Made by a program: the position numbers and the translations under genes. A stretch of DNA of 50,100 bases, counting the filler, from Yuukianura sp. NJ FZ-2021 (lineage: Eukaryota), in the NCBI GenBank assembly GCA_046563655.1. It is 2 parts of 2 records of this genome, joined end to end, with 100 filler letters (N's around TTAATTAATTAA, not from the genome) between each part and the next. Parts side by side here need not be neighbours in the genome. Positions count along the whole stretch, not along the records: positions 25,101 to 50,100 come from JAJCTO010000020.1; 1 more part is not named here. One strand, given 5' to 3'. Below the pieces are notes generated by a model. The model was not told where the DNA came from. It did no database searches and was given only the letters and a program-made list of their open reading frames with translations. Within the stretch, counting starts at the first letter, position 1, and the number at the start of each line of letters is the position of its first letter. This document shows positions 1,631 to 50,100 of the stretch, piece after piece.

Positions 1631-1640
1631 GGAAATTCCC
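1631..1640 (-). promoter_or_regulatory. Candidate NF-kB/Rel site upstream of the Toll-like receptor
   Basis: GGAAATTCCC = GGGAATTTCC on the minus strand, a consensus kB site. GATAAG/CTTATC motifs at about 1438-1487 and an Inr-like TCAGT at 1519. Confidence 0.45.
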
Positions 1641-1732
1641 GTAACTCAATTGTTAGTTACTATCTTAATCCAAAGTATAGGTTCGTGGGGAATTTTGTTT
1701 GGGAAATGAACCTCCCAACAAATTGGCCAAGG

Positions 1733-4700: not shown

Positions 4701-5180
4701 GAGGGAACCGGAAAATTAATGGGTGACGGGCGACACGAGTTGGCTTTCGACATGGACGCAGCCAGTACATGCTCTTCAACTGCCAGTCTGGGCCTAGGAA
4801 GCGCCGTAAACGAAACTCTGCGGGTCTGTCTCCATCTACGTGACTTCCAAGTAGGAGCACCCATTTCTGAAAATATTGTCGAATGTGTTGACAAGTCTAG
4901 GAAAGTATTGATTGTAATTTCCAAAAGTTACTTGGAGTCACAGTGGTGTCTATTTGAAATGAACCTGGCTTACCATCGACTCGTAGAAGGTCGAAGGTCA
5001 TCCATTGTTCTGATTTTACTGGAGAGTATCCCGTGCAGAAAGAGAACTAAAGTGCTGAGCCACCTCATGAAGTCCAGAACGTACCTGGAGTGGCCAGCCA
5101 ACGCTACGGGAGCACTGGAAAAACGGGTCTTCTGGAAAAGACTTAAAGTGGCGCTGAAAACCGATGCGGAGGAAGACTGA
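1733..5180 (+). CDS. Toll-like receptor (single cysteine cluster, Toll-9/vertebrate type), about 1087 aa; exons 1733-2789 and 2974-5180
   Basis: Signal peptide MKWTQILFLLGLGVG, many LxxLxLxxN LRRs, one juxtamembrane LRRCT (NQFQCDLGVC...C...C), TM IVISIGTVCFLMVIIGSLYVA and TIR (YDVFISYS, LHLRDFQVG, SQWCLFE, YLEWP, FWKRL). Intron 2790-2973 joins the two ORFs in frame. Alternative ATG at 1706. Confidence 0.93.
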
Positions 5181-25000: not shown

Positions 25001-25100
25001 NNNNNNNNNNNNNNNNNNNNNNNNNNNNNNNNNNNNNNNNNNNNTTAATTAATTAANNNNNNNNNNNNNNNNNNNNNNNNNNNNNNNNNNNNNNNNNNNN
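25001..25100. other. Artificial gap/linker: N44-TTAATTAATTAA-N44
   Basis: Symmetric 100-nt spacer whose core puts a stop codon in all six frames. Confidence 0.95.
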
Positions 25101-28100: not shown

Positions 28101-31100
28101 CCTTATATCCCTTCAACGATGATTCTGGGGTCAGATGTTAGATGAAAAATTTCTTTAAATTTATTTTACATACACTGGTTTCAAAAAACCGTGTGTAATT
28201 ATAAAATGTCAATGTATAACTAACAAGTCCGTATAGCGTAAAAGTTGAAAATTCTTCAAAAGCCTTATATCCCTTCCACGATGGTTCTGCGTCAGATGTT
28301 AGGTGAAAAATTGCTTTACACTGGTTTCAAAAAACCGTGTAAAAATCATAAAATGTCAATGTATTACTACCAAGTCTCTATAGCGTAAAAGTTGAAAATT
28401 CTTCAAAGGCTTTACATCCATTCCACGATGATTCTGCGTCAGATGTTAGGTGAAAAATTGCTTTACACTGGTTTCAAAAAACAGTGTGAAAATCATAAAA
28501 TGTCAATGTATAACTAGCAAGTCCGTATAGCGTAAAAGTTGAAAATTCTTCGAAAGCCATATATCCCTTCCACCATGATTCTGCGTCAGATGCTACATGA
28601 CAAATTGCTTTACGTTGGTTTCAAAAAACCGTATGAAAATCATAAAATGTCAATGTATTACTACCAAGTCCCTATAGCGTAAAAGTTGAAAATTCTTCAA
28701 AAGCCTTATATCACTTCCACGATGATTCTGCGTCAGATGTTATGTGAAAAATTGCTTTACACTGGTTTCAAAAAACCGTGCAAAAATCATAAACTGTCAA
28801 TGTATTACTACCAAGTCCCTATAGCGTAAAAGTTGAAAACTCTTCAAAGGCCTTATATCCCTTCGACGATGATTCTGCGTCAGATGTTAGGTGACAAATT
28901 GCTTTAAATTTATTTTACATACACTGGTTTCAAAAAACCGTGTGTAATTATAAAATGTCAATGTATAACTAGCAAGTCCGTATAGCGTAAAAGTTGAAAA
29001 TTCTTCGAAAGCCATATATCCCTTCCACCATGATTCTGCGTCAGATGCTACATGACAAATTGCTTTACGTTGGTTTCAAAAAACCGTATGAAAATCATAA
29101 AATGTCAATGTATTACTACCAAGTCCCTATAGCGTAAAAGTTGAAAATTCTTCAAAAGCCTTATATCCCTTCCACGATGATTCTGCGTCAGATGTTATGT
29201 GAAAAACTGCTTTACACTGGTTTCAAAAAACCGTGCAAAAATCATAAACTGTCAATGTATAACTAACAAGTCCGTATAGCGTAAAAGTTGAAAATTCTTC
29301 AAAAGCCTTATATCCCTTCCACGATGGTTCTGCGTCAGATGTTAGGTGAAAAATTGCTTTACACTGGTTTCAAAAAACCGTGTAAAAATCATAAAATGTC
29401 AATGTATTACTACCAAGTCTCTATAGCGTAAAAGTTGAAAATTCTTCAAAGGCTTTACATCCATTCCACGATGATTCTGCGTCAGATGTTAGGTGAAAAA
29501 TTGCTTTACACTGGTTTCAAAAAACAGTGTGAAAATCATAAAATGTCAATGTATAACTAGCAAGTCCGTATAGCGTAAAAGTTGAAAATTCTTCGAAAGC
29601 CATATATCCCTTCCACCATGATTCTGCGTCAGATGCTACATGACAAATTGCTTTACGTTGGTTTCAAAAAACCGTATGAAAATCATAAAATGTCAATGTA
29701 TTACTACCAAGTCCCTATAGCGTAAAAGTTGAAAATTCTTCAAAAGCCTTATATCACTTCCACGATGATTCTGCGTCAGATGTTATGTGAAAAATTGCTT
29801 TACACTGGTTTCAAAAAACCGTGCAAAAATCATAAACTGTCAATGTATTACTACCAAGTCCCTATAGCGTAAAAGTTGAAAACTCTTCAAAGGCTTTATA
29901 TCCCTTCGACGATGATTCTGCGTCAGATGTTAGGTGACAAATTGCTTTAAATTTATTTTACATACACTGGTTTCAAAAAACCGTGTGTAATTATAAAATG
30001 TCAATGTATAACTAGCAAGTCCGTATAGCGTAAAAGTTGAAAATTCTTCGAAAGCCATATATCCCTTCCACCATGATTCTGCGTCAGATGCTACATGACA
30101 AATTGCTTTACGTTGGTTTCAAAAAACCGTATGAAAATCATAAAATGTCAATGTATTACTACCAAGTCCCTATAGCGTAAAAGTTGAAAATTCTTCAAAA
30201 GCCTTATATCCCTTCCACGATGATTCTGCGTCAGATGTTATGTGAAAAACTGCTTTACACTGGTTTCAAAAAACCGTGCAAAAATCATAAACTGTCAATG
30301 TATAACTAACAAGTCCGTATAGCGTAAAAGTTGAAAATTCTTCAAAAGCCTTATATCCCTTCCACGATGGTTCTGCGTCAGATGTTAGGTGAAAAATTGC
30401 TTTACACTGGTTTCAAAAAACCGTGTAAAAATCATAAAATGTCAATGTATTACTACCAAGTCTCTATAGCGTAAAAGTTGAAAATTCTTCAAAGGCTTTA
30501 CATCCATTCCACGATGATTCTGCGTCAGATGTTAGGTGAAAAATTGCTTTACACTGGTTTCAAAAAACAGTGTGAAAATCATAAAATGTCAATGTATAAC
30601 TAGCAAGTCCGTATAGCGTAAAAGTTGAAAATTCTTCGAAAGCCATATATCCCTTCCACCATGATTCTGCGTCAGATGCTACATGACAAATTGCTTTACG
30701 TTGGTTTCAAAAAACCGTATGAAAATCATAAAATGTCAATGTATTACTACCAAGTCCCTATAGCGTAAAAGTTGAAAATTCTTCAAAAGCCTTATATCAC
30801 TTCCACGATGATTCTGCGTCAGATGTTATGTGAAAAATTGCTTTACACTGGTTTCAAAAAACCGTGCAAAAATCATAAACTGTCAATGTATTACTACCAA
30901 GTCCCTATAGCGTAAAAGTTGAAAACTCTTCAAAGGCTTTATATCCCTTCGACGATGATTCTGCGTCAGATGTTAGGTGACAAATTGCTTTAAATTTATT
31001 TTACATACACTGGTTTCAAAAAACCGTGTGTAATTATAAAATGTCAATGTATAACTAGCAAGTCCGTATAGCGTAAAAGTTGAAAATTCTTCGAAAGCCA

Positions 31101-34100
31101 TATATCCCTTCCACCATGATTCTGCGTCAGATGCTACATGACAAATTGCTTTACGTTGGTTTCAAAAAACCGTATGAAAATCATAAAATGTCAATGTATT
31201 ACTACCAAGTCCCTATAGCGTAAAAGTTGAAAATTCTTCAAAAGCCTTATATCCCTTCCACGATGATTCTGCGTCAGATGTTATGTGAAAAACTGCTTTA
31301 CACTGGTTTCAAAAAACCGTGCAAAAATCATAAACTGTCAATGTATAACTAACAAGTCCGTATAGCGTAAAAGTTGAAAATTCTTCAAAAGCCTTATATC
31401 CCTTCCACGATGGTTCTGCGTCAGATGTTAGGTGAAAAATTGCTTTACACTGGTTTCAAAAAGCCGTGTAAAAATCATAAAATGTCAATGTATTACTACC
31501 AAGTCTCTATAGCGTAAAAGTTGAAAATTCTTCAAAGGCTTTACATCCATTCCACGATGATTCTGCGTCAGATGTTAGGTGAAAAATTGCTTTACACTGG
31601 TTTCAAAAAACAGTGTGAAAATCATAAAATGTCAATGTATAACTAGCAAGTCCGTATAGCGTAAAAGTTGAAAATTCTTCGAAAGCCATATATCCCTTCC
31701 ACCATGATTCTGCGTCAGATGCTACATGACAAATTGCTTTACGTTGGTTTCAAAAAACCGTATGAAAATCATAAAATGTCAATGTATTACTACCAAGTCC
31801 CTATAGCGTAAAAGTTGAAAATTCTTCAAAAGCCTTATATCACTTCCACGATGATTCTGCGTCAGATGTTATGTGAAAAATTGCTTTACACTGGTTTCAA
31901 AAAACCGTGCAAAAATCATAAACTGTCAATGTATTACTACCAAGTCCCTATAGCGTAAAAGTTGAAAACTCTTCAAAGGCTTTATATCCCTTCGACGATG
32001 ATTCTGCGTCAGATGTTAGGTGACAAATTGCTTTAAATTTATTTTACATACACTGGTTTCAAAAAACCGTGTGTAATTATAAAATGTCAATATATAACTA
32101 GCAAGTCCGTATAGCGTAAAAGTTGAAAATTTTTCAAAAGCCTTATATCCCTTCCACGATGATTCTGCGTCAGATGTTATGTGAAAAATTGCTTTACACT
32201 GGTTTCAAAAAACCGTGCAAAAATCATAAACTGTCAATGTATAACTAACAAGTCCGTATAGCGTAAAAGTTGAAAATTCTTCAAAAGCCTTATATCCCTT
32301 CCACGATGGTTCTGCGTCAGATGTTAGGTGAAAAATTGCTTTACACTGGTTTCAAAAAACCGTGTAAAAATCATAAAATGTCAATGTATTACTACCAAGT
32401 CTCTATAGCGTAAAAGTTGAAAATTCTTCAAAGGCTTTACATCCATTCCACGATGATTCTGCGTCAGATGTTAGGTGAAAAATTGCTTTACACTGGTTTC
32501 AAAAAACAGTGTGAAAATCATAAAATGTCAATGTATAACTAGCAAGTCCGTATAGCGTAAAAGTTGAAAATTCTTCGAAAGCCATATATCCCTTCCACCA
32601 TGATTCTGCGTCAGATGCTACATGACAAATTGCTTTACGTTGGTTTCAAAAAACCGTATGAAAATCATAAAATGTCAATGTATTACTACCAAGTCCCTAT
32701 AGCGTAAAAGTTGAAAATTCTTCAAAAGCCTTATATCCCTTCCACGATGATTCTGCGTCAGATGCTACATGACAAAATGCTTTACGTTGGTTTCAAAAAA
32801 CCGTATGAAAATCATAAAATGTCAATGTATTACTACCAAGTCCGTATAGCGTAAAAGTTGAAAATTCTTCAAAAGCCTTATATCCCTTCTACGATGGTTC
32901 TGCGTCAGATGTTAGGTGAAAAATTGCTTTGCACTGGTATCAAAAAACCGTGTGAAAATCATAAAACGGCAATGTATTACTACCAAGTCTCTATAGCGTA
33001 AAAGTTGAAAATTCTTCAAAGGCCTTATATCCCTTCAACGATGATTCTGGGGTCAGATGTTAGGTGAAAAATTTCTTTAAATTTATTTTACATACACTGG
33101 TTTCAAAAAACCGTGTGTAATTATAAAATGTCAATGTATAACTAACAAGTCCGTATAGCGTAAAAGTTGAAAATTCTTCAAAAGCCTTATATCCCTTCCA
33201 CGATGGTTCTGCGTCAGATGTTAGGTGAAAAATTGCTTTACACTGGTTTCAAAAAACCGTGTAAAAATCATAAAGGTCAATGTATTACTACCAAGTCTCT
33301 ATAGCGTAAAAGTTGAAAATTCTTCAAAGGCCTTACATCCATTCCACGATGATTCTGCGTCAGATGTTAGGTGAAAAATTGCTTTACACTGGTTTCAAAA
33401 AACAGTGTGAAAATCATAAAATGTCAATGTATAACTAGCAAGTCCGTATAGCGTAAAAGTTGAAAATTCTTCGAAAGCCATATATCCCTTCCACCATGAT
33501 TCTGCGTCAGATGCTACATGACAAATTGCTTTACGTTGGTTTCACAAAACCGTATGAAAATCATAAAATGTCAATGTATTACTACCAAGTCCCTATAGCG
33601 TAAAAGTTGAAAATTCTTCAAAAGCCTTATATCCCTTCCACGATGATTCTGCGTCAAATGTTATGTGAAAAATTGCTTTACACTGGTTTCAAAAAACCGT
33701 GCAAAAATCATAAACTGTCAATGTATTACTACCAAGTCCCTATAGCGTAAAAGTTGAAAATTCTTCAAAGGCCTTATATCCCTTCGACGATGATTCCGAG
33801 TCAGATGTTAGGTGACAAATTGCTTTAAATTTATTTTACATACACTGGTTTCAAAAAACCGTGTGTAATTATAAAATGTCAATGTATAACGAGCAAGTCC
33901 GTATAGCGTAAAAGTTGAAAATTCTTCAAAAGCCTTATATCCCTTCCACGATGGTTCTGCGTCAGATGTTATGTGAAAAATTGCTTTACACTGGTTTCAA
34001 AAAACCGTGCAAAAATCATAAACTGTCAATGTATTACTACCAAGTCCCTATAGCGTAAAAGTTGAAAATTCTTCAAAGGCCTTATATCCCTTCGACGATG

Positions 34101-37100
34101 ATTCTGCGTCAGATCTTAGGTGACAAATTGCTTTAAATTTATTTTACATACACTGGTTTCAAAAAACCGTGTGTAATTATAAAATGTCAATGTATAACTA
34201 GCAAGTCCTTATAGCGTAAAAGTTGAAAATTCTTCGAAAGCCATATATCCCTTCCACCATGATTCTGCGTCAGATGCTACATGACAAATTGCTTTACGTT
34301 GGTTTCAAAAAACCGTATGAAAATCATAAAATGTCAATGTATTACTACCAAGTCCCTATAGCGTAAAAGTTGAAAATTCTTCAAAAGCCTTATATCCCTT
34401 CCACGATGATTCTGCGTCAGATGTTATGTGAAAAATTGCTTTACACTGGTTTCAAAAAACCGTGCAAAAATCATAAACTGTCAATGTATAACTAACAAGT
34501 CCGTATAGCGTAAAAGTTGAAAATTCTTCAAAAGCCTTATATCCCTTCCACGATGGTTCTGCGTCAGATGTTAGGTGAAAAATTGCTTTACACTGGTTTC
34601 AAAAAACCGTGTAAAAATTATAAAATGTCAATGTATTACTACCAAGCCTCTATAGCGTAAAAGTTGAAAATTCTTCAAAGGCTTTACATCCATTCCACGA
34701 TGATTCTGCGTCAGATGTTATGTGAAAAACTGCTTTACACTGGTTTCAAAAAACCGTGCAAAAATCATAAACTGTCAATGTATAACTAACAAGTCCGTAT
34801 AGCGTAAAAGTTGAAAATTCTTCAAAAGCCTTATATCCCTTCCACGATGGTTCTGCGTCAGATGTTAGGTGAAAAATTGCTTTACACTGGTTTCAAAAAA
34901 CCGTGTAAAAATCATAAAATGTCAATGTATTACTACCAAGCCTCTATAGCGTAAAAGTTGAAAATTCTTCAAAGGCCTTACATCCATTCCACGATGATTC
35001 TGCGTCAGATGTTATGTGAAAAACTGCTTTACACTGGTTTCAAAAAACCGTGCAAAAATCATAAACTGTCAATGTATAACTAACAAGTCCGTATAGCGTA
35101 AAAGTTGAAAATTCTTCAAAAGCCTTATATCCCTTCCACGATGGTTCTGCGTCAGATGTTAGGTGAAAAATTGCTTTACACTGGTTTCAAAAAACCGTGT
35201 AAAAATCATAAAATGTCAATGTATTACTACCAAGTCTCTATAGCGTAAAAGTTGAAAATTCTTCAAAGGCTTTACATCCATTCCACGATGATTCTGCGTC
35301 AGATGTTAGGTGAAAAATTGCTTTACACTGGTTTCAAAAAACAGTGTGAAAATCATAAAATGTCAATGTATAACTAGCAAGTCCGTATAGCGTAAAAGTT
35401 GAAAATTCTTCGAAAGCCATATATCCCTTCCACCATGATTCTGCGTCAGATGCTACATGACAAATTGCTTTACGTTGGTTTCAAAAAACCGTATGAAAAT
35501 CATAAAATGTCAATGTATTACTACCAAGTCCCTATAGCGTAAAAGTTGAAAATTCTTCAAAAGCCTTATATCCCTTCCACGATGATTCTGCGTCAGATGC
35601 TACATGACAAAATGCTTTACGTTGGTTTCAAAAAACCGTGTGAAAATCATAAAACGGCAATGTATTACTACCAAGTCTCTATAGCGTAAAAGTTGAAAAT
35701 TCTTCAAAGGCCTTATATCCCTTCAACGATGATTCTGGGGTCAGATGTTAGGTGAAAAATTTCTTTAAATTTATTTTACATACACTGGTTTCAAAAAACC
35801 GTGTGTAATTATAAAATGTCAATGTATAACTAACAAGTCCGTATAGCGTAAAAGTTGAAAATTCTTCAAAAGCCTTATATCCCTTCCACGATGGTTCTGC
35901 GTCAGATGTTAGGTGAAAAATTGCTTTACACTGGTTTCAAAAAACCGTGTAAAAATCATAAAGGTCAATGTATTACTACCAAGTCTCTATAGCGTAAAAG
36001 TTGAAAATTCTTCAAAGGCCTTACATCCATTCCACGATGATTCTGCGTCAGATGTTAGGTGAAAAATTGCTTTACACTGGTTTCAAAAAACAGTGTGAAA
36101 ATCATAAAATGTCAATGTATAACTAGCAAGTCCGTATAGCGTAAAAGTTGAAAATTCTTCGAAAGCCATATATCCCTTCTACCATGATTCTGCGTCAGAT
36201 GCTACATGACAAATTGCTTTACGTTGGTTTCAAAAAACCGTATGAAAATCATAAAATGTCAATGTATTACTACCAAGTCCATATAGCGTAAAAGTTGAAA
36301 ATTCTTCAAAAGCCTTATATCCCTTCCACGATGATTCTGCGTCAAATGTTATGTGAAAAATTGCTTTACACTGGTTTCAAAAAACCGTGCAAAAATCATA
36401 AACTGTCAATGTATTACTACCAAGTCCCTATAGCGTAAAAGTTGAAAATTCTTCAAAGGCCTTATATCCCTTCGACGATGATTCCGAGTCAGATGTTAGG
36501 TGACAAATTGCTTTAAATTTATTTTACATACACTGGTTTCAAAAAACCGTGTGTAATTATAAAATGTCAATGTATAACGAGCAAGTCCGTATAGCGTAAA
36601 AGTTGAAAATTCTTCAAAAGCCTTATATCCCTTCCACGATGGTTCTGCGTCAGATGTTATGTGAAAAATTGCTTTACACTGGTTTCAAAAAACCGTGCAA
36701 AAATCATAAACTGTCAATGTATTACTACCAAGTCCCTATAGCGTAAAAGTTGAAAATTCTTCAAAGGCCTTATATCCCTTCGACGATGATTCTGCGTCAG
36801 ATGTTAGGTGACAAATTGCTTTAAATTTATTTTACATACACTGGTTTCAAAAAACCGTGTGTAATTATAAAATGTCAATGTATAACTAGCAAGTCCTTAT
36901 AGCGTAAAAGTTGAAAATTCTTCGAAAGCCATATATCCCTTCCACCATGATTCTGCGTCAGATGCTACATGACAAATTGCTTTACGTTGGTTTCAAAAAA
37001 CCGTATGAAAATCATAAAATGTCAATGTATTACTACCAAGTCCCTATAGCGTAAAAGTTGAAAATTCTTCAAAAGCCTTATATCCCTTCCACGATGATTC

Positions 37101-40100
37101 TGCGTCAGATGTTATGTGAAAAATTGCTTTACACTGGTTTCAAAAAACCGTGCAAAAATCATAAACTGTCAATGTATAACTAACAAGTCCGTATAGCGTA
37201 AAAGTTGAAAATTCTTCAAAAGCCTTATATCCCTTCCACGATGGTTCTGCGTCAGATGTTAGGTGAAAAATTGCTTTACACTGGTTTCAAAAAACCGTGT
37301 AAAAATTATAAAATGTCAATGTATTACTACCAAGCCTCTATAGCGTAAAAGTTGAAAATTCTTCAAAGGCCTTACATCCATTCCACGATGATTCTGCGTC
37401 AGATGTTAGGTGAAAAATTGCTTTACACTGGTTTCAAAAAACAGTGTGAAAATCATAAAATGTCAATGTATAACTAGCAAGTCCGTATAGCGTAAAAGTT
37501 GAAAATTCTTCGAAAGCCATATATCCCTTCTACCATGATTCTGCGTCAGATGCTACATGACAAATTGCTTTACGTTGGTTTCAAAAAACCGTATGAAAAT
37601 CATAAAATGTCAATGTATTACTACCAAGTCCATATAGCGTAAAAGTTGAAAATTCTTCAAAAGCCTTATATCCCTTCCACGATGATTCTGCGTCAAATGT
37701 TATGTGAAAAATTGCTTTGCACTGGTATCAAAAAACCGTGTGAAAATCATAAAACGGCAATGTATTACTACCAAGTCTCTATAGCGTAAAAGTTGAAAAT
37801 TCTTCAAAGGCCTTATATCCCTTCGACGATGATTCCGAGTCAGATGTTAGGTGACAAATTGCTTTAAATTTATTTTACATACACTGGTTTCAAAAAACCG
37901 TGTGTAATTATAAAATGTCAATGTATAACGAGCAAGTCCGTATAGCGTAAAAGTTGAAAATTCTTCAAAAGCCTTATATCCCTTCCACGATGGTTCTGCG
38001 TCAGATGTTATGTGAAAAATTGCTTTACACTGGTTTCAAAAAACCGTGCAAAAATCATAAACTGTCAATGTATTACTACCAAGTCCCTATAGCGTAAAAG
38101 TTGAAAATTCTTCAAAGGCCTTATATCCCTTCGACGATGATTCTGCGTCAGATGTTAGGTGACAAATTGCTTTAAATTTATTTTACATACACTGGTTTCA
38201 AAAAACCGTGTGTAATTATAAAATGTCAATGTATAACTAGCAAGTCCTTATAGCGTAAAAGTTGAAAATTCTTCGAAAGCCATATATCCCTTCCACCATG
38301 ATTCTGCGTCAGATGCTACATGACAAATTGCTTTACGTTGGTTTCAAAAAACCGTATGAAAATCATAAAATGTCAATGTATTACTACCAAGTCCCTATAG
38401 CGTAAAAGTTGAAAATTCTTCAAAAGCCTTATATCCCTTCCACGATGATTCTGCGTCAGATGTTATGTGAAAAATTGCTTTACACTGGTTTCAAAAAACC
38501 GTGCAAAAATCATAAACTGTCAATGTATAACTAACAAGTCCGTATAGCGTAAAAGTTGAAAATTCTTCAAAAGCCTTATATCCCTTCCACGATGGTTCTG
38601 CGTCAGATGTTAGGTGAAAAATTGCTTTACACTGGTTTCAAAAAACCGTGTAAAAATTATAAAATGTCAATGTATTACTACCAAGCCTCTATAGCGTAAA
38701 AGTTGAAAATTCTTCAAAGGCCTTACATCCATTCCACGATGATTCTGCGTCAGATGTTAGGTGAAAAATTGCTTTACACTGGTTTCAAAAAACAGTGTGA
38801 AAATCATAAAATGTCAATGTATAACTAGCAAGTCCGTATAGCGTAAAAGTTGAAAATTCTTCGAAAGCCATATATCCCTTCTACCATGATTCTGCGTCAG
38901 ATGCTACATGACAAATTGCTTTACGTTGGTTTCAAAAAACCGTATGAAAATCATAAAATGTCAATGTATTACTACCAAGTCCATATAGCGTAAAAGTTGA
39001 AAATTCTTCAAAAGCCTTATATCCCTTCCACGATGATTCTGCGTCAAATGTTATGTGAAAAATTGCTTTGCACTGGTATCAAAAAACCGTGTGAAAATCA
39101 TAAAACGGCAATGTATTACTACCAAGTCTCTATAGCGTAAAAGTTGAAAATTCTTCAAAGGCCTTATATCCCTTCGACGATGATTCCGAGTCAGATGTTA
39201 GGTGACAAATTGCTTTAAATTTATTTTACATACACTGGTTTCAAAAAACCGTGTGTAATTATAAAATGTCAATGTATAACGAGCAAGTCCGTATAGCGTA
39301 AAAGTTGAAAATTCTTCAAAAGCCTTATATCCCTTCCACGATGGTTCTGCGTCAGATGTTATGTGAAAAATTGCTTTACACTGGTTTCAAAAAACCGTGC
39401 AAAAATCATAAACTGTCAATGTATTACTACCAAGTCCCTATAGCGTAAAAGTTGAAAATTCTTCAAAGGCCTTATATCCCTTCGACGATGATTCTGCGTC
39501 AGATGTTAGGTGACAAATTGCTTTAAATTTATTTTACATACACTGGTTTCAAAAAACCGTGTGTAATTATAAAATGTCAATGTATAACTAGCAAGTCCTT
39601 ATAGCGTAAAAGTTGAAAATTCTTCGAAAGCCATATATCCCTTCCACCATGATTCTGCGTCAGATGCTACATGACAAATTGCTTTACGTTGGTTTCAAAA
39701 AACCGTATGAAAATCATAAAATGTCAATGTATTACTACCAAGTCCCTATAGCGTAAAAGTTGAAAATTCTTCAAAAGCCTTATATCCCTTCCACGATGAT
39801 TCTGCGTCAGATGTTATGTGAAAAATTGCTTTACACTGGTTTCAAAAAACCGTGCAAAAATCATAAACTGTCAATGTATAACTAACAAGTCCGTATAGCG
39901 TAAAAGTTGAAAATTCTTCAAAAGCCTTATATCCCTTCCACGATGGTTCTGCGTCAGATGTTAGGTGAAAAATTGCTTTACACTGGTTTCAAAAAACCGT
40001 GTAAAAATTATAAAATGTCAATGTATTACTACCAAGCCTCTATAGCGTAAAAGTTGAAAATTCTTCAAAGGCTTTACATCCATTCCACGATGATTCTGCG

Positions 40101-40514
40101 TCAGATGTTAGGTGAAAAATTGCTTTACACTGGTTTCAAAAAACAGTGTGAAAATCATAAAATGTCAATGTATAACTAGCAAGTCCGTATAGCGTAAAAG
40201 TTGAAAATTCTTCGAAAGCCATATATCCCTTCCACCATGATTCTGCGTCAGACGCTACATGACAAATTGCTTTACGTTGGTTTCAAAAAACCGTATGAAA
40301 ATCATAAAATGTCAATGTATTACTTCCAAGTCCCTATAGCGTAAAAGTTGAAAATTCTTCAAAAGCCTTATATCCCTTCCACGATGATTCTGCGTCAGAT
40401 GCTACATGACAAAATGCTTTACGTTGGTTTCAAAAAACCGTATGAAAATCATAAAATGTCAATGTATTACTACCAAGTCCCTATAGCGTAAAAGTTGAAA
40501 ATTCTTCAAAAGCC
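25101..40514. repeat. AT-rich satellite array, 147-bp monomer (161-162-bp variant), about 103 monomers, with higher-order repeats
   Basis: TTGAAAA anchor at 25101, 25248, 25395 and onward. The long variant carries an AATTTATTTTACATA insert and recurs at about 749, 1043 and 308+1043-bp spacings. Confidence 0.97.
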
Positions 40515-41079
40515 TGAGGGGTTGCAATGCCCCGACGACTGGCACACAGGCCACTCGAACAATAAAGTGGGGCAGAGGTCACGACAATGGCTACAAATGG
40601 ACAATGAACTTTATTTACAGTAATTAGGATAGAGTTTACGGTCTAATGAGGGCCAAATGTTGAATTGATGAAGTGTAGAGGTTGGTGGGGCTCGGTCCTG
40701 TGCAGGATTGACCAGGTACTGGTCCGGTGGGGCTTGTAGAGGTCAGTCCGGGTCACAACAGTAGTTCCGGCGTGGTCCAGTGGCCAATCCAAGATGGAGG
40801 AGACGTGGAGAGAGAGACGGGACAAGATCCGGGCAGAGTGACGAGTAGGGAGAGACTGTGTGGAGGAAGAAGTGGACAGTGGTGATGATGATGATGACGG
40901 GATGCGTGTCCAAGTGATGGATGATGCAACTTCCCGTGCATCTGATTGGTGGGCGAGTGGTTTTGGTGGTGAGGACGTGGAGTTGTTGTTGTGCTGCTGC
41001 TGGAAGGACGAAGGGGGAGAAGAAGGGGGAAAGGGAACCGAAGTGGCTATGGGAGGATTTGTGGGGAATAACCCCCACA
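40515..41079 (-). repeat. Putative 3' LTR, about 565 bp
   Basis: On the minus strand it starts TGTGGGGGTT and ends AACCCCTCA (TG...CA with short imperfect terminal IR). AATAAA at 40615-40610. Only a weak purine tract (GGGGA) precedes it, so the inner boundary is unconfirmed without the second LTR. Confidence 0.6.
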
Positions 41080-41131
41080 GGTCCCCAACGACCTGGAGAC
41101 GTCCCGGCGACATTTGAAGAAGACGTGGGGG

Positions 41132-42325
41132 TTATTTTGGTGGAGCTGGAGGATCTCGGCGTTTTGGGGAATTCTTCCTCGGCGGAGGTGGAGCATTGGC
41201 CGAGTTCAGGGCCCACCAACGAGCACGTCTCTGCTGCCGATTCGGAGCTGGTGGATTAGGTGGGACAGGGGGAAAACGTCCTTGTACAGGAGCTGGGGGA
41301 GCTGAAGCTGCTGGAGCTGAAACTACTGGAGCTGGGGGAGGGGTTAAAATTGGAGTTGGTGGGGAGTTGAAAGTGAAGGTAACAGAAGTTGCTGAATTCG
41401 GGAGAAGGGTGTAGTAGGGGAAATATCCGGGGGGAATTGATGAAAATGGGAATTGTGAAGCGGCCGAAGTGACAGGAACGGTAATTGAAGTTGAAGTGGA
41501 CGGAATTGGTGAAGTTGAAGAAGTGGCTGGAGAAACTGGACGTGAATTTGGAGAAAGTGGCCGAATCTGGGGAGAAGCTGAGCGATTTCGGGGAGGAGCT
41601 GGACGAGCGTTGTATGGAGAAGGCCGATTGGAACGGAATTGAGCTCGAACAGGGGGAACAGATTTTGATGAAGTGCTGGGTCCAGGGTTTTGGGGGTTTT
41701 TAGGGGTTCTTGGGGACAAGGAAACATTTGACATTTTGCGTGTCAAAGCTGTAGGGGAGCTGGATCGCGAACGACCAACTGGGGGTTGTTTTGGGGGTCC
41801 GTTTGGAAACTGCAAATCCAGAAGCGAGGGAATCTTCGCAGATCCATGACGCTGAGCCTGTAGCTTCGATTTTGGGGCTGGGTCACGAGGACGACGAAAC
41901 GTGGCAGAATCCTGGGACTTGGGGGGAACAACCACGACGACCGAAGCAAGTCTTGGGCGTGGCGCTGGAGGAGGAGCCGAAACCATGTCCTGGAGTGACT
42001 TTTGGGGGGAATTCGGTTGGAAGCTGCTAGAGCTTGGGGAAAACAACTGCCGATTGAGCTTTTTCGGGGATTTTGGAGGGGAAGCAGCAGCAGTGGGCAT
42101 ATCCCAGTCGTCATCCGGAATCGGTGCAATGGCAGGCGTAGAAATTGGAGCAGCAATGACGGTAGGAGACGGAGACGAAGACGAAGATGAAGAAGACCGA
42201 GAAACAGCATCATTTTGAGGAGGAGAGTTCAAAAGGTCATCTTCTGCAGCCAAATCGATCTCGGCAATGCCCTCAGAGGCGTCATCTCCTTCGTCCATCA
42301 TGTCATCATCGTGAGGGGGGTCCAT
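41132..42325 (-). CDS. Retrotransposon accessory ORF3 (397 aa, acidic N-terminus, Pro/Ser-rich, not Env-like)
   Basis: Uninterrupted ATG-initiated ORF between the integrase stop and the 3' LTR, directly preceded by the splice acceptor CTGATGCTGTTCTTTTATATATTTTTAG. Confidence 0.7.
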   Translation of the reverse strand: MDPPHDDDMMDEGDDASEGIAEIDLAAEDDLLNSPPQNDAVSRSSSSSSSSPSPTVIAAPISTPAIAPIPDDDWDMPTAAASPPKSPKKLNRQLFSPSSSSFQPNSPQKSLQDMVSAPPPAPRPRLASVVVVVPPKSQDSATFRRPRDPAPKSKLQAQRHGSAKIPSLLDLQFPNGPPKQPPVGRSRSSSPTALTRKMSNVSLSPRTPKNPQNPGPSTSSKSVPPVRAQFRSNRPSPYNARPAPPRNRSASPQIRPLSPNSRPVSPATSSTSPIPSTSTSITVPVTSAASQFPFSSIPPGYFPYYTLLPNSATSVTFTFNSPPTPILTPPPAPVVSAPAASAPPAPVQGRFPPVPPNPPAPNRQQRRARWWALNSANAPPPPRKNSPKRRDPPAPPK

Positions 42326-42369
42326 CTAAAAATATATAAAAAGAACAGCATCAGTATTTAATTACTGAG

Positions 42370-45300
42370 TCAGCGCTTCTTTGGCTTCGCAAGGCGGGAA
42401 ATGCAAGACAGAGCTTTAGTGTAAGCCGCGCGTTTCGGACGACTAGAAATCGGGGTTTTTACGCTGGCAGGGGCGCAAAATACGGGGATTTCACTCGCAA
42501 CGGGATGCAGGGTATCCTGGGCGAGTAAAATTGGTGGAATTAGGATTTCTGGGTCACGGCTTTGATTTTGGTCATTTAAGTCAACATTAGGGGGGTCAGA
42601 ATTTTGGTTTGGCGTTACGGGAAGCGTAAGAGGGTCATTTTGCTCAGTCGGAATTGGCAATTTTGGTAATGTAGAGGACAAATCAGGGTCAGACACTGGA
42701 GGAGGGACAAAATCGTTATCAGACGACTCAGAGGAACTACTGTCTGCATCAGACGTGTCAGAGACACGCTGATGATAAGGTTTAAGGCGCTGAACGTTCA
42801 CGACAGTCTCGTGAGGCTGCCGAGGGGGAACAGAAGTAATTCGAACAGTGCCGTTATGGAGGACGTCAATGACTTTGTAAGGGCCAATCCACTTCTTCGT
42901 AAATTTGCCGACACGACCCTTTTTCCGCTGAAAGTTCCTGAGCAGAACTTTCATACCAACGACATAAGTCGGAAAACGGATCTGTAATTGGGCCTTAACT
43001 CTGAGAAGCTGCTGCTCACGGGATAGCTCGTGGGCTACGTTATTCGCAACAAATAATCGGTCCAGGGCATCGTCGGGCTCTAAATATTCCCGGGGAAGGG
43101 GAACAGCCTGTCAACCGGCAAAACCGGCTCCCTACCAAAGACCAGAAAATAAGGAGAAAAATTAGTGACACGATGTACTGAACAATTAATGGAAAATACC
43201 GCCCTGGGGAGATGTAGATCCCAATCCTTGTGGTTTTCACTTACGAATTTGGCGATTACTGACTTTACCGTGCCGTTATGTCGTTCACAGACGCCGTTAG
43301 ACTTGGGATGATAGGAAGTCGTGGATCTGTGTTCAATGGCGTGGAGGGAAAGGAAATCTTCAAATTCGTCGGAAAGGAAAACCGTACCACGGTCTGACAG
43401 AATGATTTTGGGAATTCCGTGGCGAAAAAGGACGTGTTTGTTAAGTACTTTAATCGCTTGAGCAGAATCTGCTGCGGGAACTGGCCAGGCTTCTACGTAA
43501 CGGGTATGGAGATCAATTACTGTCAGAATGTACTTGTTACGTCTCGCTGTGACGGGGAATGGGCCTAAGTAGTCTAGGGCAATGGTGTGGAATGGAATGG
43601 CGGGAACGTCAAGACCAGCGCTATTTGGCGGGAGAGCAAAATTCCGTCTATTATGGATCTGACACAAGTGGCACGACGTGACAAATTTCACCACATCGCG
43701 ATACATCCGGGGCCAATAAAACCTGGAGCGTAGAAGATGCCAAGTCTTGTGTAAGCCGAGGTGGCTAAGGGAGTCGTTATGTACGGATTCCATGGACGAT
43801 TTTCGGAGGGATTTCGGGAGACAAAGACGCCAGAGATTTCCAAATTCCGAGTAGTTCATCCGGTACAAAATGCCATCACGAAGACTGTACTCTCTCAATT
43901 TCTTGGGTTCGGGCAAATTATGGGAAGTACCAGATTGTTCTGCTTTCAAATACTCAATGACAGGAAGCCATTCTGGCTCTTTAAGCTGGAGATCTTTCAG
44001 TTTTGCATCTCTAACTCTTCGTGGGGATTCAGGGGAAACCGCTAAGGCCAGAAGATGATGTTCAATGGCCAAATGGTCTGTGTCAGAGGGGGCTGGGTCA
44101 ACTGGGTTACGGGAAAGGGGATCAGCATCGGTGTGAACACGACCACTCTTATGAATTACGGTAAAATCATAAGGTTGGAGGGCTAAAGACCAACGGGAAA
44201 TTTGGCCATAGGGGTCTTTAAATTTTAGCATGTCACAAAGGGAATGGTGGTCAGTGACAACTTTAAAATGACGGCCGTATAAATACGGTCGAAATTTCTC
44301 TACAGCCCAAACAAAAGCCTTCATTTCCAATTGGGGGGTTCCAAATTTTGGATTCGGAGGGGGAAACCGCTCTGGAAGCATAAGCAACCACTCTCTCTTT
44401 TCCGTCCTGAATTTGGCAAAGGGTCGCTCCAAAACCGAGTCCAGACGCATCACAATGGACGGACGTTTCGGCTTCTTCATCAGGGAACGCAAGGACAGGG
44501 GGAGATGTTAATTTGTCTTTTAGCGTCTGAAACGCTGTTTCGGCTTCGGGGTTCCAATGGAAAGGGGTACCACGTTTCGCAGCAACGAGAAGATGAAGGG
44601 GACGGGCAATTTCGGCAAAACCCTCGATAAATCGGCGATAGTAACTGCAAAGACCAATGAAGGAACGGACACCTCTAACAGTCGTGGGAGTAGGGAATTC
44701 ACGAACTGCTTTTGTTTTGTTGGGGTCAACTGCAATTCCATTTCTGGAAACAATATGGCCAAGGAATTTTAGGGAATCTTCGCCAAAGTTACACTTTTTG
44801 GGTTTAAGACTCAGACCAGCTCTTCTAAGGGCACAAAAAATTTGGGCTAAGTGATCCAAATGCTCTTCAAAAGTTCGGGAGTAGCAAACCACATCGTCTA
44901 AATAAACGAGTGCTATGGACCACTTCAAACGACCTAAGACATTGTCAATTAGGCGTTGCCAAGTAGCGGGGGCATTGGTCAAACCAAAGGGCATTACAAC
45001 GAACTCATATTGTCCGTCGGGGGTCACAAAACTGGTCTTTTCTCGGTCCTCAGGCTCCACTTCAACCTGGTAATACGCTTGGTCACAATCCATGGAGGAA
45101 AAATACTTGGCGCCATTAAGTCTGTCGAGGGTATCATCAATTCGGGGAAGGGGGTAAGAATCTTTCCGAGTCACTGCGTTGACCTTACGAAAGTCAACAC
45201 AAAACCGCCAACTTTCGTCGGGCTTTTTGACCAGAAGGACTGGGGAACACCAAGGGCTATCGCTCGGAGTAATAGCATTGAGATTCAAAAGACGCTCGAC

Positions 45301-47438
45301 TTGGTTTTGAATTTCCCTCCGCTCTGTAAATCCGGTTCTGTGGGGATGGGAAGCAATCGGTTTAGCAGAACCTGTGTCGATTTTGTGGGTGGTTAGGTGA
45401 GTACGGCCAAGGGTAGCAGGATCAAAATTGAAAACATCCAAATTCGCTACAAGAAAATCTTGCATAATTTGGCGCTGTTCAGGGGTTAGGGAATTTGAAA
45501 TCTGGAACGCCTCGATCCTCTTTTGCAGTTTCAGTGTTGCTATTTCAGCGTCATCATTAACCGAAAGTCCTAAGATCTCGTGCGCTGGGAGGGAAGATTG
45601 GGAGGATTTAGAGCTAACATGGTCGAATTCATCAAGGTCACAGAGTACGGAAGACTCTGCGAAGGGTTCGAAGGTGCCAATAGAGATGTTTTGAAGAAGT
45701 TTCACAGGGCGGTCACTCAAATTCCACAAGAACGTAACTCCGCTGCCATCTTTAAGCGTAGAAATGGAATTCCCAATGGCAATATGTTTTGCGTGTTGGA
45801 GCTCACGACGAGGGGAAACCAAAATGTCTCCGGTGAAAGGTAAATCAGTTTTTACACTGACTCGTTTCATTGTTCTTGGGTTAATGAGGATTGACCTGGC
45901 CAGTCTCAGGCACGGAGGGGAGTAGAATTTTGAGATAAATTCGAATTGCTCACGAAGGACGCTTCGGAGTCAAGTAGGGAAGGGGAATTTGAAGTATCTG
46001 GGGACTGAGATGAATTCAGAGCCATGTCAATAGCTAGAGGGTTTTGGTTTTTGGGACTGGCTGTACATTTGGGAGGGATCGACTTTGGTTCTGCTTCCGA
46101 AGACTTTGGAATACTGGGACTATCAGAAACTTCTTCAGTTTCTGACAAAGTTAATTTGTTAAGGACAGGGACTTGGGATTTTGGAATACAAACATACTCA
46201 TTTCTGAGGTCAGTACACGGAAGTTCACCTTTTACAAGGCGCTCATTCGCGGGATCCAAGAGAAAATGTTGGGAACGGAGGAAATCTGAACCCAAAACGA
46301 TCTCATTTGAAAGGTGCTGGAAAATGTAAAAGGGGTATTGGAAGGAGACGCCAGCAATTGAGAAAGTGATCATTGTGGTTTGGGGGGAACCACAACGAAC
46401 GTAAGAACCAAAAGAAAGTTTGACTCGAACAGGTTGAACATCAACCGCTTGGGAAACAATATTGGGGAACCTCCTTAGAAAATCAGGGTGGACACAACAA
46501 AGAGAAGCACCTGTATCACACAGGACTCGAAGAGTCGTAGAACCAAAGACAACATCGGTATGGAAAGTAGAATGGGGGGTGGAGTCAATTCCGGAAATGA
46601 ACTTTGCAGCTGAGATTCCCGAAGGAAACTCGGAATCGTGACTTGGGGACTTAGGTGGGGAATCAAAATCGAAAGAAGTGGGATCTGGAACTTTGGAATT
46701 TGCAGCTGAGAACTCAGGGGCGGAATAATTTACCCAGTCAGCGACTCGGCTTACATTGGAGGGGCTAATGCCAAATTTGGAAGTGAGAGAAACGGCTAGT
46801 GGGTTGAGTTGAGTAGGGCCACACACAAAAGCGGAAGGGCAAGGTTCAGAAGGGCCAACACAAACAGAAACAAACTTTGGTACTGCAGCGGTAGGTTGAG
46901 TAGGGGGAAGAACAGAAGTAGTAGTAGCGGCGGCGGTTGTAGTTGTAGTTGTAGGTCCCAGAAGGGAAGTAGGATTAGTAGCGGCGGAGTTACGAAGAGA
47001 AGTAGGGACTGTAGGGACTGCAGCGTCAGAACAAAAGTTTGGGAAGGTTGTAGTAGCCTCCCCAACGACCAAAGGTGAAATAGGCTGGGGATTTGATTTA
47101 GGACAAGTTCGGTGGTGGTCAAAAAGAGCTTGTAGTTTGGAAAGAAACTCTTCTGGAATAATGGGAATTTTAGAATTGTGCTTCCTGCCAAAAGCTGAAC
47201 AATTCTTGTGGGTTTGAAATTTAGGTTGTTTGATTTTTCGGGATTTGGGACGTGTTGGACAAACCCTGGGTGGGGCTTGTACCTTAATTTGAGAGACTGG
47301 ATTGGGTGGTAATAGAAGCTGACGTCCCTGCAACGGCAGCTCTATTGGTTTTCCGGAGGTTTTGGAAGTACGGCGGATGCGATGTTTGTAAGAAGATCCG
47401 TCATTGTAGAGAAAGCAGACATCATCGAAGGAACCCAT
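42370..47438 (-). CDS. pol: pol polyprotein (PR, RT, RNase H, integrase with GPY/F tail), split by about 3 single-base frameshifts
   Basis: PR LCDTGAS. RT WRFCVDFRKVN, YPLPRIDD, MPFGLTNAPATWQR, YLDD. RNase H HCDASG, VVAYASR, VVTDHHSL. IN H-H-C-C, LDYLGP, ILSDRG, NGVCER, WIGPYKV. Breaks near 45915, 44345 and 43090. Confidence 0.92.
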
Positions 47439-48740
47439 TGGTTTTCCTGAGCTGGTGGTCCAGTTTGTGGATTTTGAAATGACTGCGGCTGATGTGGGCT
47501 GGTTTGTAGTGGTCTTGAATCAACGTTAGGGAAGGGACGTTGAACAGCTTGGCTATAACTAGCCAGCTGCTGGGGTTGTTGATTATTAGGATTGTTTCGG
47601 GGGCGCAGTGGTCTACAGTTGCGGGTCAAAGGGTCAATGCCTTGGCTCCACCACCATTTGTGACAGTATCGAACAATATGTCCAATATTGTTGCAGTAAT
47701 CGCAAATTGGCTTTCCATCATCAGAACGACGATTCTGTTGTGGAGGGAAAGGGCGATCGGGCTGGGGAGCAGTTTGAACTGCTGGTTGGGTTTGAGCAGG
47801 AGGGCGTTGGTACTGCTGGACTTGGTAGGGAACAGTTGTAGGGAAATTAGCATTTGGAATGGCGGGAGCCATTTGAGTTTCAAGTCCACGAAGAGAAACC
47901 ATTGGATCGGAACTTCCTTTAGAGCGGGTATGGACATCAGCAACTCGTCTCAGGATCTTCTGGAATTCGGAAGGGGTCTGGATATTCTGCATGACAAATG
48001 CTTGTTCCAGCTCGTGTGGGAGACCACGAACTAATTGTTCAACCTTCCGGGATTCTGGCATCATGGGATCAAGTTTGGAAAGAATTTGGATTTTCTCAGC
48101 TACATACTGATCAATGTTGTCCCCTATTTTGAACCGCAGAGCCTTTACTCTGAGCTTTGAAAACCTCCCGTCGCTCTTTAAGGGAAAAATGGGAAACAAA
48201 TTCTTTTTCAAATTTGCTCCAAATGTTTTCTGCGTCTGCGTAGGGAACTTGCAACTGCTCACGGAAATGGGGCCAAATGGAAACAAACCAGGCACTAGCA
48301 ACACCCGTCAACACTCTGTCAAAATGACTAAGCGCTCCGAATGCACCAAAGCCTGATCCGCCCAAGTCGTATTTGTATCGGGCCATGTATTCAGCAGGAT
48401 CGCTCATTCCATCGTACTGTCGAATGTGTTTGAATATCTTGATGTCCTGCTTGCTTGGGTCGGGTGGGGGGAAATTTCGAAAAATTTGGGGAATGGAAGC
48501 TTGTACAGCTGCAGGGCTAGCAATAGTACTTGCTGGGGTGGGGGGTGTAGGAACGAATTGGGCTTGTGTTGGGGCAAAATGAACTGCAGCAGGTTGACCT
48601 TGAGTTGACAAATTGAGAGTAGGAGGAAGAGTCTGGGTAGCAGTATCCATGGGAATTGTAGATTGCGACAAGATATGTTGAGGGGACTGTCCATCTTGTT
48701 GGGGGGTAGAGGCAAATGGTCTCGCAAAGTACGACAACAT
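47342..48740 (-). CDS. gag: gag (capsid plus CCHC zinc knuckle), one frameshift near 48180-48200
   Basis: IRQYDGMSDPAEYM, VLTGVASAWF, WSKFEKEFVSHF, GDNIDQYVAEK...LVRGLP and CDYCNNIGHIVRYC. Confidence 0.85.
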
Positions 48741-48752
48741 TTTTGAAATCGC

Positions 48753-49167
48753 TTAGAGACGGCGTCTCGGGTCTACACGGGGTTCTGACTCGAACACTAA
48801 CCAGCCTTGGGCGTTAGCAAATGCTTTGAACAACCACCGGTAAATTGGACCGAAGAAATCCCAGTGGTAGTATAGGACTCGTACAATTAGGGCTAGGAAG
48901 TAGTAAGTCTCGGTGCCAATGAGGACCCGGAAGAAGTAACGATAAGTCCTCGGAGCTTGCCGTAAGTAGAAGACTGGGATAATGTGGAGGGCGATATAGT
49001 CAGAAACAACCGAAAATGTCGCTATTAGACAGGAATAAGTAATGTGGGAGAGGAATGTTGCAATGAGATACACAGTTTCAAGGACCAAAAGGATGAAGCA
49101 GATCCCGAAAGAATGCTGCTAAGCCGAGAAATACGACTGTCTTTAGAAAGGACCAAAAAATTTGCAT
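48753..49167 (-). CDS. Hydrophobic ORF0 upstream of gag (111 aa open from TTG 49088; about 137 aa from ATG 49167 if one frameshift is corrected)
   Basis: Long apolar stretches, a basic C-terminus (PRRRL) and a stop 12 nt before the gag ATG. Confidence 0.45.
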
Positions 49168-50100
49168 TTGCAGGGACTTCAAAATAACTTAAATGCTTTT
49201 CAGCACTTAAGCTTTACTCAAGAAAATGTAGGAGAAGAGAGACCAAAAAGAAAACGACAATCCGTTGAACAATGACACCAATCGTAGCAATCACAACGAT
49301 CAAGACAATGTAAAGGAATGGGGAGTACATCGCTTGCTTTTCTGGACTGGGCAGGGACTTTCTATAAATACTTCAAAAAATGTATTAAATATGAACTTAT
49401 TTTGGAATATGAATATTTGTAAGCTTAAATCTAGAAAAAGAAAGAAATGGGAATTTGAAAAAAATAGGGTTTGTAGAATTAGCTACTGTCTAGGGGCTAT
49501 GATTTTACAATCAAATTCCTCCAAAACAGAACTTTAGAAAAAATAAAGAACCAATCGGACAAGAAGAACGAGAAAAACGAGTCTTACGCCAACCGATGCA
49601 ATGCCAAACCACATTAAGAAACCGACGAGCCAAAGAAACCACTCAATAATTTGCATTACTGAGCTTAATTTTCAGAAAAAGAACCGAAAAATTGGAATGG
49701 GAACTTCAATAGGGGAGGGCACGACGTAAAATCGCGTTATCTGAAGAATCGGCGAAGTCAGGGGAATAGGTAGTACCTACTCACTCACTGACTAAACGCA
49801 CACCGACTTGAAAAGTTTTAAGTTTTTAGAATTTTGGGAAAATCGGGCAGGGGTTTGGGACGAAAAGCCGCTTTTAATTTTTGAAGTTTGGACGAAAATC
49901 TGAATTTAATTAATGTAAAGTTAGAACGTAACGTAATTTAGGAATTAGGAATAGTTTTTAGCCAAATTCTGGAAAATCCGACTATTCAGGGGAATGGGGG
50001 ATATCGCAGTTACGTGCGACTTGAAAAATCAGAAGAATCGGCTGACTCTGGGGATTAGGTTAGGTAGGGGTAAACAAAAATCGGAATTCTGCTAAGTGTC

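Follow-up and report, generated by a model that had tools for sequence, protein, structure and literature searches.

A coding-like open reading frame in the env position of a Yuukianura Ty3/gypsy element, and a candidate splice junction that skips pol to reach it

Introduction

What a Ty3/gypsy long terminal repeat (LTR) retrotransposon carries past its integrase, and how a gene in that place would be expressed, is the question raised by a 50,100-nucleotide stretch of DNA from Yuukianura sp. NJ FZ-2021 (assembly GCA_046563655.1). This stretch, referred to here as the window, consists of two parts of the assembly joined by 100 filler letters, with positions 25,101 to 50,100 coming from record JAJCTO010000020.1. 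A Ty3/gypsy element occupies the minus strand in the last 9.6 kb of the window, and a third open reading frame (ORF), here ORF3, follows its integrase in the envelope (env) position. Annotation of LTR retrotransposons usually stops at gag-pol, and whatever lies past the integrase is called 'env-like'. In the errantiviruses (Drosophila gypsy, ZAM) env is expressed from a spliced subgenomic RNA, with the donor in the leader or where gag begins, and its product is an anchored membrane glycoprotein that has a signal peptide.

An earlier note on this DNA, made from the sequence alone, had proposed that ORF3 is a spliced gene for an accessory protein and not for an envelope protein. This core idea appears largely right, in that the feature is real and the interpretation is in part supported. 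We think it somewhat more probable than its contrary that ORF3 is a real accessory gene reached by a splice from position 47283 to position 42325.

Results

ORF3 runs from an ATG to a TAA stop on the minus strand (41132..42325; 397 amino acids plus stop), with its ATG 44 nt past the integrase stop and its own stop 52 nt ahead of the 3′ LTR, the edges of which were set by contigs from public runs. The 44 nt between integrase stop and ORF3 (42326..42369, minus strand) read CTCAGTAATTAAATACTGATGCTGTTCTTTTTATATATTTTTAG, followed at once by the ATG, and would form the last 44 nt of the intron described below; they hold a branch-like TACTGAT (42356-42350), then a T-rich tract, then TTTTTAG with its AG at 42327-42326. 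The earlier note had described a 397-residue frame starting 44 nt past the integrase stop and ending about 50 nt before the LTR, preceded by a branch-like CTGAT, a pyrimidine tract and TTTTAG abutting the ATG, and all of this agrees with what is found here.

Over the 1723 nt from 42369 to 40647 the frame of ORF3 contains 3 stops and the other two frames 9 and 13, and an open run of at least 397 codons arises in only 10 of 2000 dinucleotide-preserving shuffles. Codon choice was scored with a synonymous-codon table built from the element's own gag-pol. The ORF3 frame scores +36.9 bits (+0.095 per codon, the pieces of gag-pol themselves ranging from 0.056 to 0.107 per codon), and the two off frames over the same DNA score -29.9 and -48.9 bits. 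ORF3 is probably a real coding gene. Beyond the TAA this frame continues open over most of the LTR (40646-41113, minus strand; a 156-aa ORF), but this continuation was rejected as coding on its negative codon score (-25.3 bits), and is probably a by-product of the C-rich strand. The coding signal therefore ends at the ORF3 stop codon.

The element is present in five public runs, consulted as Logan contigs (X1 to X4 from one sample and X5 from another organism; all listed as 'DNA?', and none on record as RNA), and contigs of X1, X2, X3 and X5 were placed on 40500-50100. A second organism contains 0.43 of the sampled words. One X1 contig joins 47283 directly to 42325, skipping 4957 nt, with ends that read CT..AC on the plus strand and thus GT..AG on the strand of the element. 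The skipped segment (42326..47282, minus strand) has the form of a GT..AG intron, covers all of pol and reaches to the base before the ORF3 ATG. On its donor side the upstream exon ends in ...CAAATTAAG (47283..47300, minus strand), 59 nt past the gag stop, and the segment starts with GTACAA (...CAAATTAAG|GTACAAGCC, or AAG|GTACAA in short); on its acceptor side the sequence is ...TATATATTTTTAG|ATGGAC, with TTTTTAG directly 5′ of the ATG. Donor and acceptor resemble splice sites of host genes in the window, such as CAG|GTAAGG, AAG|GTACAT, TTTTGCAG| and ATTTCAG|.

The long X1 contigs break at the joint (40515-42327, 42298-47312 and 47283-50100) and overlap by 30 nt, the overlap that a branch of a 31-mer graph would give; the one that carries ORF3 and the LTR, 1813 nt in length, shows no difference from the window. 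The sides at 47283 and 42325 are not connected by any repeat, and the joint is therefore not a graph artefact. The depth figure of the joining contig is 87.5, compared with 122 (pol) and 107 (gag) for its neighbours, which indicates that the joined form is not a rare variant in X1. Depth is available as one figure per contig, and a profile along the element was not usable; no conclusion was drawn from the 386 of the X1 contig with ORF3 and LTR, nor from the summed depth in X2 and X5, where ORF3 bins lie below pol bins. There may be a further RNA form ending in ORF3.

The joined form reads leader-gag-ORF3-LTR, and keeps the whole of gag, including its stop, in the upstream exon. Upstream of the donor the pol frame, which is -1 relative to gag, is open from 47519 (47283..47519, minus strand), that is for 79 codons, and from the pol-frame ATG at 47438 to the donor there are exactly 52 codons, the exon ending on a codon boundary and in phase with ORF3. 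The earlier note had expected a junction ending at 42325, and that end is indeed seen in the one X1 contig; the donor, however, lies at 47283 and not in the leader, and the donors suggested near 49587 and 49784-49788 occur in none of the eight joints listed. The joint is closer to pol excision of the copia type than to an errantivirus env message.

The shape of the X1 contigs suggests that this run is a transcriptome. The X1 contigs placed on the element number 10, almost all of one variant, compared with 196 for X2 and 588 for X3, which include many diverged copies, and the longest X1 record is 13 kb, compared with 275 kb (X2) and 403 kb (X3). The joint is listed in X1 only, X2 and X3 being from the same sample, although contigs can drop variants and this absence is not proof. 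It is very likely that the joint reflects splicing, whether it was captured as RNA or by way of reverse-transcribed spliced RNA, the latter being the simplest account of exact GT..AG ends at a site with branch point and T tract should X1 be DNA.

The product of ORF3 is an orphan, disordered over most of its length, and does not belong to the envelope proteins. Its 397 residues include 86 prolines, 64 serines and no cysteine. Residues 1-40 hold 15 of the 24 acidic residues (D/E), something reached in 0 of 5000 residue shuffles, and beyond this acidic head the protein is net basic, with 20 S/T-P sites. At residues 286-305 there is an aromatic island of six aromatics in 20 residues, which 41 of 5000 shuffles reach; the layout is thus non-random in both its charge and its aromatic clustering. 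AlphaFold2, run with no alignment, gives a mean predicted local distance difference test score (pLDDT) of 49.7, with 248 of the 397 residues below 50, and the sole confident element is a helix at 363-376 (block-mean pLDDT 76 to 87) over RQQRRARWWALNSA. No hydrophobic stretch was found in ORF3 (the best 19-residue Kyte-Doolittle mean is 0.93), and neither was a signal peptide or a membrane segment. The acidic N-terminus, the Pro/Ser-rich and disordered body, the basic remainder and the lack of Env character that had been read from the sequence by eye are borne out by the residue counts, the structure prediction and the Pfam search.

Sequence comparison revealed no homologues. An exhaustive HMMER search of 1,835,955,588 representative proteins returned 0 matches at E <= 0.001, a word-indexed search found no relative among 8000 scored candidates, and there was no match in the ESM Atlas, among PDB sequences (E up to 1), among Pfam families (E up to 5) or in the rest of the window. 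Pattern scans gave 75 matches in genome contigs and 4 in viral contigs, none of which was confirmed. ORF3 was also compared with 80 related metagenome gypsy loci, in which identity to the element's reverse transcriptase (RT) is mostly 37-50%, with one best segment at 57%; tblastn found nothing in these with the low-complexity filter, and a best E of 0.10 with the filter removed. Frames past pol were inspected in 11 of the 80 loci and several are present, such as a 659-aa frame in L058 and a 492-aa frame in L019, none of them related to ORF3. The protein searches thus give no match to a described ORF3 family, and the term 'undescribed' in the earlier note is accurate in that the protein has no described relative, but is too strong if taken to mean an undescribed kind of protein, for which the CERV protein of Cer1 (see Discussion) is a precedent.

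The element itself is a Ty3/gypsy (Metaviridae) LTR retrotransposon, as evidenced through the order protease, RT, RNase H, integrase and the TG...CA ends of its LTR. Pfam matches follow on the minus strand in the order gag-asp_proteas, RVT_1, RT_RNaseH/RT_RNaseH_2, Integrase_H2C2, rve and SH3_Tf2-1. With the RT, 7003 of 8000 scored candidates match at E <= 0.001, and the top named relatives carry the annotation transposon 297/17.6/412 Pol; the top identity is only 48%, and the family is therefore not in the protein collections. In the window copy, ORF calls and Pfam divide pol (42370..47438, minus strand) into four ORFs on that strand, namely a protease ORF (45906-47438), an RT ORF with RVT_1 and RNase H (44263-45870), an ORF with RNase H, Integrase_H2C2 and rve (43080-44492), and an ORF with the SH3-like C-terminal domain of the integrase, ending in TGA (42370-42954). 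Similarly, gag (47342..48740, minus strand) lies in two overlapping frames (48111-48740 and 47342-48304), the second of which contains a CX2CX4HX4C zinc knuckle, read by eye; gag gave no Pfam match. The reading frame is broken at three places in pol and at one in gag, and small insertions and deletions inside pol separate contigs of other copies from the window; the breaks may belong to the window copy alone or stem from the assembly. Contigs of X2, X3 and X5 show skips of 96 or 112 nt in the stretch from the integrase core to the C-terminal domain (43001-43114).

The gag frame ends in a TAG at 47344-47342 and overlaps the pol frame by 178 nt (47342-47519), and within this overlap no canonical X XXY YYZ slippery heptamer is present in the window copy. 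The overlap contains the sequence GGAAAACCAAT twice on the minus strand: one copy immediately precedes the pol-frame ATG, and the other has the gag stop at its end.

A direct-repeat search found no LTR pair inside the window, the 5′ LTR being outside it, and the LTR borders were fixed from contigs of the public runs, which depart from the window sequence at 41079 and at 40513/40515. The 3′ LTR placed by these loose ends (40515..41079, minus strand; 565 bp) reads TGTGGGGG...CCCCTCA (TGTGG...CCTCA), with an AATAAA at 40615, and the 52 nt that separate the LTR from the ORF3 stop (41080..41131, minus strand) end in ...GGTCGTTGGGGACC in the place of a polypurine tract. Loose ends past the LTR in X2, X3 and X5 read, on the element strand, TGG and then the apparent complement of a transfer RNA (tRNA) 3′ end, as a primer binding site would. 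A 229-nt skip inside the LTR (40556-40786) is common to X2 and X5, two organisms. One X1 contig passes from the last 32 nt of the LTR, going back 9588 positions with 900 letters from outside the window in between, to 50100 and on to 47283. The leader from the 5′ LTR to gag is thus unusually long, with about 900 nt outside the window and 1360 nt inside it (48741..50100, minus strand). This leader holds three small, strongly hydrophobic frames on the minus strand, at 49534-49671 (45 aa), 49214-49372 (52 aa) and 48753-49118 (121 aa), the last of which stops 12 nt ahead of the gag ATG and has no match in Pfam; they may be upstream ORFs, a fourth gene or noise.

The 3′ LTR adjoins a 147-bp satellite array (25101-40515, and also 23446-25000) of 15.4 kb and about 103 copies, with copy spacings of 147 and 161 nt that recur at a period of 1351 nt and so form a higher-order repeat. 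Seven copies of a 223-bp satellite, together with two runs of N (25001-25044 and 25057-25100), are found on the far side of the array. The host genes in the window are a Toll-like receptor with leucine-rich repeats and a TIR domain in two large exons (1601-5180, plus strand), malate synthase exons (12537-13655, plus strand), an exostosin of family GT47 (14257-15776, plus strand) and a forkhead exon (18747-19181, minus strand), and these four genes together indicate an animal host. The best match of the Toll-like receptor is 25% identical, which suggests that the lineage is poorly sampled. Malate synthase is unusual for an animal. A scan of 35 frames for an isocitrate lyase-malate synthase fusion of the nematode type, a possible clue to the host, detected no isocitrate lyase exon upstream of the malate synthase exons. 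The introns of the host genes are short; their donors read GTAAG or GTACA and their acceptors are of a T-rich CAG type. No tRNA genes were found in the window.

Discussion

Several observations weigh against a real accessory gene reached by splicing, and are gathered here. The joint is supported by one contig from one run of one sample, and that run is listed as 'DNA?', its RNA nature being inferred from contig shape. In the joined form ORF3 stands behind a complete gag ORF, a place that ribosomes normally do not reach, and neither a leader donor nor another route to a monocistronic ORF3 message is seen in the joints listed. A splice that excises pol also has a known purpose that involves no ORF3, namely the gag-only RNA of copia. 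As for coding, the strand of the element is C-rich throughout, which favours open Pro/Ser frames, and the other frames hold two further ORFs, 127 and 156 aa in length, that overlap ORF3; the coding evidence comes from a single copy, that in the window, and one contig each of X2 and X3 has a 76-nt skip in ORF3 (41968-42045), not a multiple of three, which puts ORF3 out of frame in some genomic copies. Finally, the short motifs that might hint at a function are not significant: patterns of the nuclear export signal (NES) type appear in 3749 of 5000 shuffles and PPxY in 868 of 5000, P(T/S)AP, YPxL and YxxL do not stand out from shuffles, and no 12-residue window of ORF3 holds 6 K/R.

In the principal alternative, splicing supplies an RNA dedicated to gag, as in copia, and ORF3 is an untranslated, composition-driven frame in the 3′ untranslated region, an account that we consider unlikely but the most serious of those set against ours. 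The intron is exactly pol and gag is the first long ORF of the joined RNA, and copia splices out its entire POL region to produce a gag-only RNA (PMC5580714). Here, however, the gag stop and the -1 pol frame already allow an excess of Gag without splicing. Similarly, whilst a C-rich strand on which the other frames are also fairly open, and a product with no homologues, are what an untranslated frame might show, codon choice fits gag-pol in one frame only and does not do so in the open frame of the LTR, a frame of such length is rare in shuffles, the ATG is the very first codon past the acceptor, and the charge and aromatic clustering of the product is non-random.

The difficulty of reading a second cistron behind gag would be removed if ORF3 were made as a Gag-ORF3 fusion, in which a -1 shift on the spliced RNA carries ribosomes through the last codons of the pol frame into ORF3, giving Gag a disordered tail that is adaptor-like or late-domain-like. 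In favour of this, 79 codons of open pol frame lead to the donor, and the exon continues in phase into the ORF3 ATG, though an in-phase exon has a one-in-three chance of arising, and a fusion would have no need of an ATG sited exactly at the acceptor. Retroviral Gag proteins carry Pro-rich late-domain segments to which ORF3, being Pro-rich and disordered with a PPGY motif, bears a likeness, but PPxY is found in many shuffles, and the 178-nt overlap of the window copy lacks the slippery heptamer. We regard this route as rather improbable.

More doubtful still is that the joint is DNA, from a non-autonomous genomic copy that has no pol and was produced by reverse transcription of a spliced RNA or by plain deletion. 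The listing of X1 as 'DNA?', with no run on record as RNA, is consistent with this, and the family does have deletion variants in DNA runs (43239->47318 in X2, and 40556->40786 in X2 and X5). Yet the ends of the joint are exactly GT..AG and lie at a site with branch point and T tract, whereas the other long skip, found in X2, has TT..AG on the element strand; the joint is listed in X1 only, though the same sample gave the 196 and 588 family contigs of X2 and X3; and X1 is transcriptome-shaped, both in its 10 contigs and in its longest record. That ORF3 is a decayed envelope gene, having lost its signal peptide and anchor, has only its position between integrase and 3′ LTR in its favour, and with no Pfam family at E up to 5, no hydrophobic segment, no cysteine in 397 residues, 248 of these predicted to be disordered, and no similarity among 1.84 billion protein representatives, it can be set aside as very improbable.

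The closest functional parallel to a spliced accessory gene in this position is CERV, a protein of the Caenorhabditis elegans Gypsy/Ty3 element Cer1. CERV is not an envelope protein, the C-terminal half of it is the ORF in the env slot, it is translated from a five-exon spliced mRNA, and it is nuclear, phosphorylated and required for export of unspliced genomic RNA (PMC10309623, PMC3315495). The likenesses are that an env-slot ORF is reached by host-type GT-AG splicing that removes pol (here on the evidence of one X1 contig from a run listed as 'DNA?'), that homologues are lacking outside a narrow host group, ORF3 being likewise an orphan, that a basic stretch resembling a nuclear-localisation signal and a dependence on phosphorylation are listed for CERV, and that the element must export an RNA that keeps usable splice sites. 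The differences are also considerable. Protein searches, in libraries assumed to contain Cer1, showed no sequence similarity between CERV and ORF3. CERV's N-terminal half is encoded by gag-frame exons, with the env-slot ORF in frame with a single gag-pol polyprotein, whereas in the present element gag ends in a stop of its own, the donor is placed past that stop, and ORF3 opens with a separate ATG at the acceptor and has nothing in common with gag.

In terms of RNA structure, the nearest likeness is to copia, the gag-only RNA of which arises through an intron spanning all of POL, and to the shGAG RNAs of plant Ty1/copia elements, again with a pol-covering intron, host-like splice sites and gag as the first ORF; in the Ty3/gypsy elements of Arabidopsis the same paper found such splicing not to be conserved (PMC5580714). 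The copia and shGAG elements belong to Ty1/copia, and have one gag-pol ORF and no third ORF, whereas the element in this study has a gag TAG, a -1 pol frame and a 397-codon, coding-like ORF at the acceptor. With errantiviruses it shares a third ORF past the integrase and an acceptor just ahead of that ORF, but ORF3 has neither signal peptide nor anchor, and the donor lies past gag. Family-specific, non-Env ORFs in the env position are also described for bdelloid rotifer LTR retrotransposons, where ORF3s encode GDSL esterases, DEDDy exonucleases, coiled-coil or membrane proteins, spliced messages being given as their typical mode of expression (PMC5408684), and additional ORFs are known in plant LTR retrotransposons (PMC7264820); ORF3 here differs from the rotifer proteins in having no domain and being mostly disordered. 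The Rev and Rex proteins of retroviruses are likewise small regulators made from spliced RNA, and ORF3 has a predicted Arg-rich helix at 363-376, but there is no sequence relation, and the tests for an export signal and a basic cluster in ORF3 were not significant. Cer1 was the only studied animal case of a Rev-like factor in an LTR retrotransposon found in the literature, and others may be in print.

If ORF3 is an accessory gene reached by splicing, removal of the 4957-nt GT-AG intron, and with it all of pol, would yield a leader-gag-ORF3-LTR RNA. Its product would be a disordered, charge-segregated protein with an acidic head, a basic and Ser/Pro-rich body, an aromatic island and a basic C-terminal helix. 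Possible routes to this protein are the ORF3 ATG on the joined RNA or on an RNA spliced further or from the leader, and a Gag-ORF3 fusion; it is also possible that ORF3 is not translated. By analogy with CERV and Rev, which makes for a tentative proposal, the ORF3 protein would come from spliced RNA alone, after which it would enter the nucleus and act there on the element's own intron-containing genomic RNA, in its export or stabilisation, perhaps through the Arg-rich helix.

Two more specific ideas, which together we hold to be speculative and would not expect to be correct, follow from the architecture of the joined form. Either splicing exchanges Pol for ORF3 behind one gag-pol recoding site, or a free ORF3 protein is an export factor of the Rev/CERV type that evolved independently. 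Under the exchange, unspliced RNA would give Gag and Gag-Pol and spliced RNA would give Gag and a Gag-ORF3 fusion, the disordered and phosphorylatable tail of which may recruit host factors to the particle through its PPGY and aromatic island.

Conclusion

The architecture of the RNA would differ from that of Cer1 in that the whole of pol is an intron, gag is kept, and the upstream exon is in phase with ORF3. Were the ORF3 protein not real, the element would still be a gypsy element with a copia-type gag-only RNA, a form that the Arabidopsis study did not encounter among Ty3/gypsy elements (PMC5580714). Were it real, it would offer two questions open to experiment, namely how an unspliced genomic RNA with strong internal splice sites leaves the nucleus, and whether splicing can swap the cargo behind a frameshift site. 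It would also be a second animal example, unrelated to Cer1, of a non-Env regulator in the env slot, in an animal from a poorly sampled lineage. If ORF3 is made as a free protein of the Rev/CERV type, in a gypsy lineage distant from Cer1, a spliced regulator in the env slot would be a recurrent solution among retroelements whose genomic RNA keeps its splice sites.

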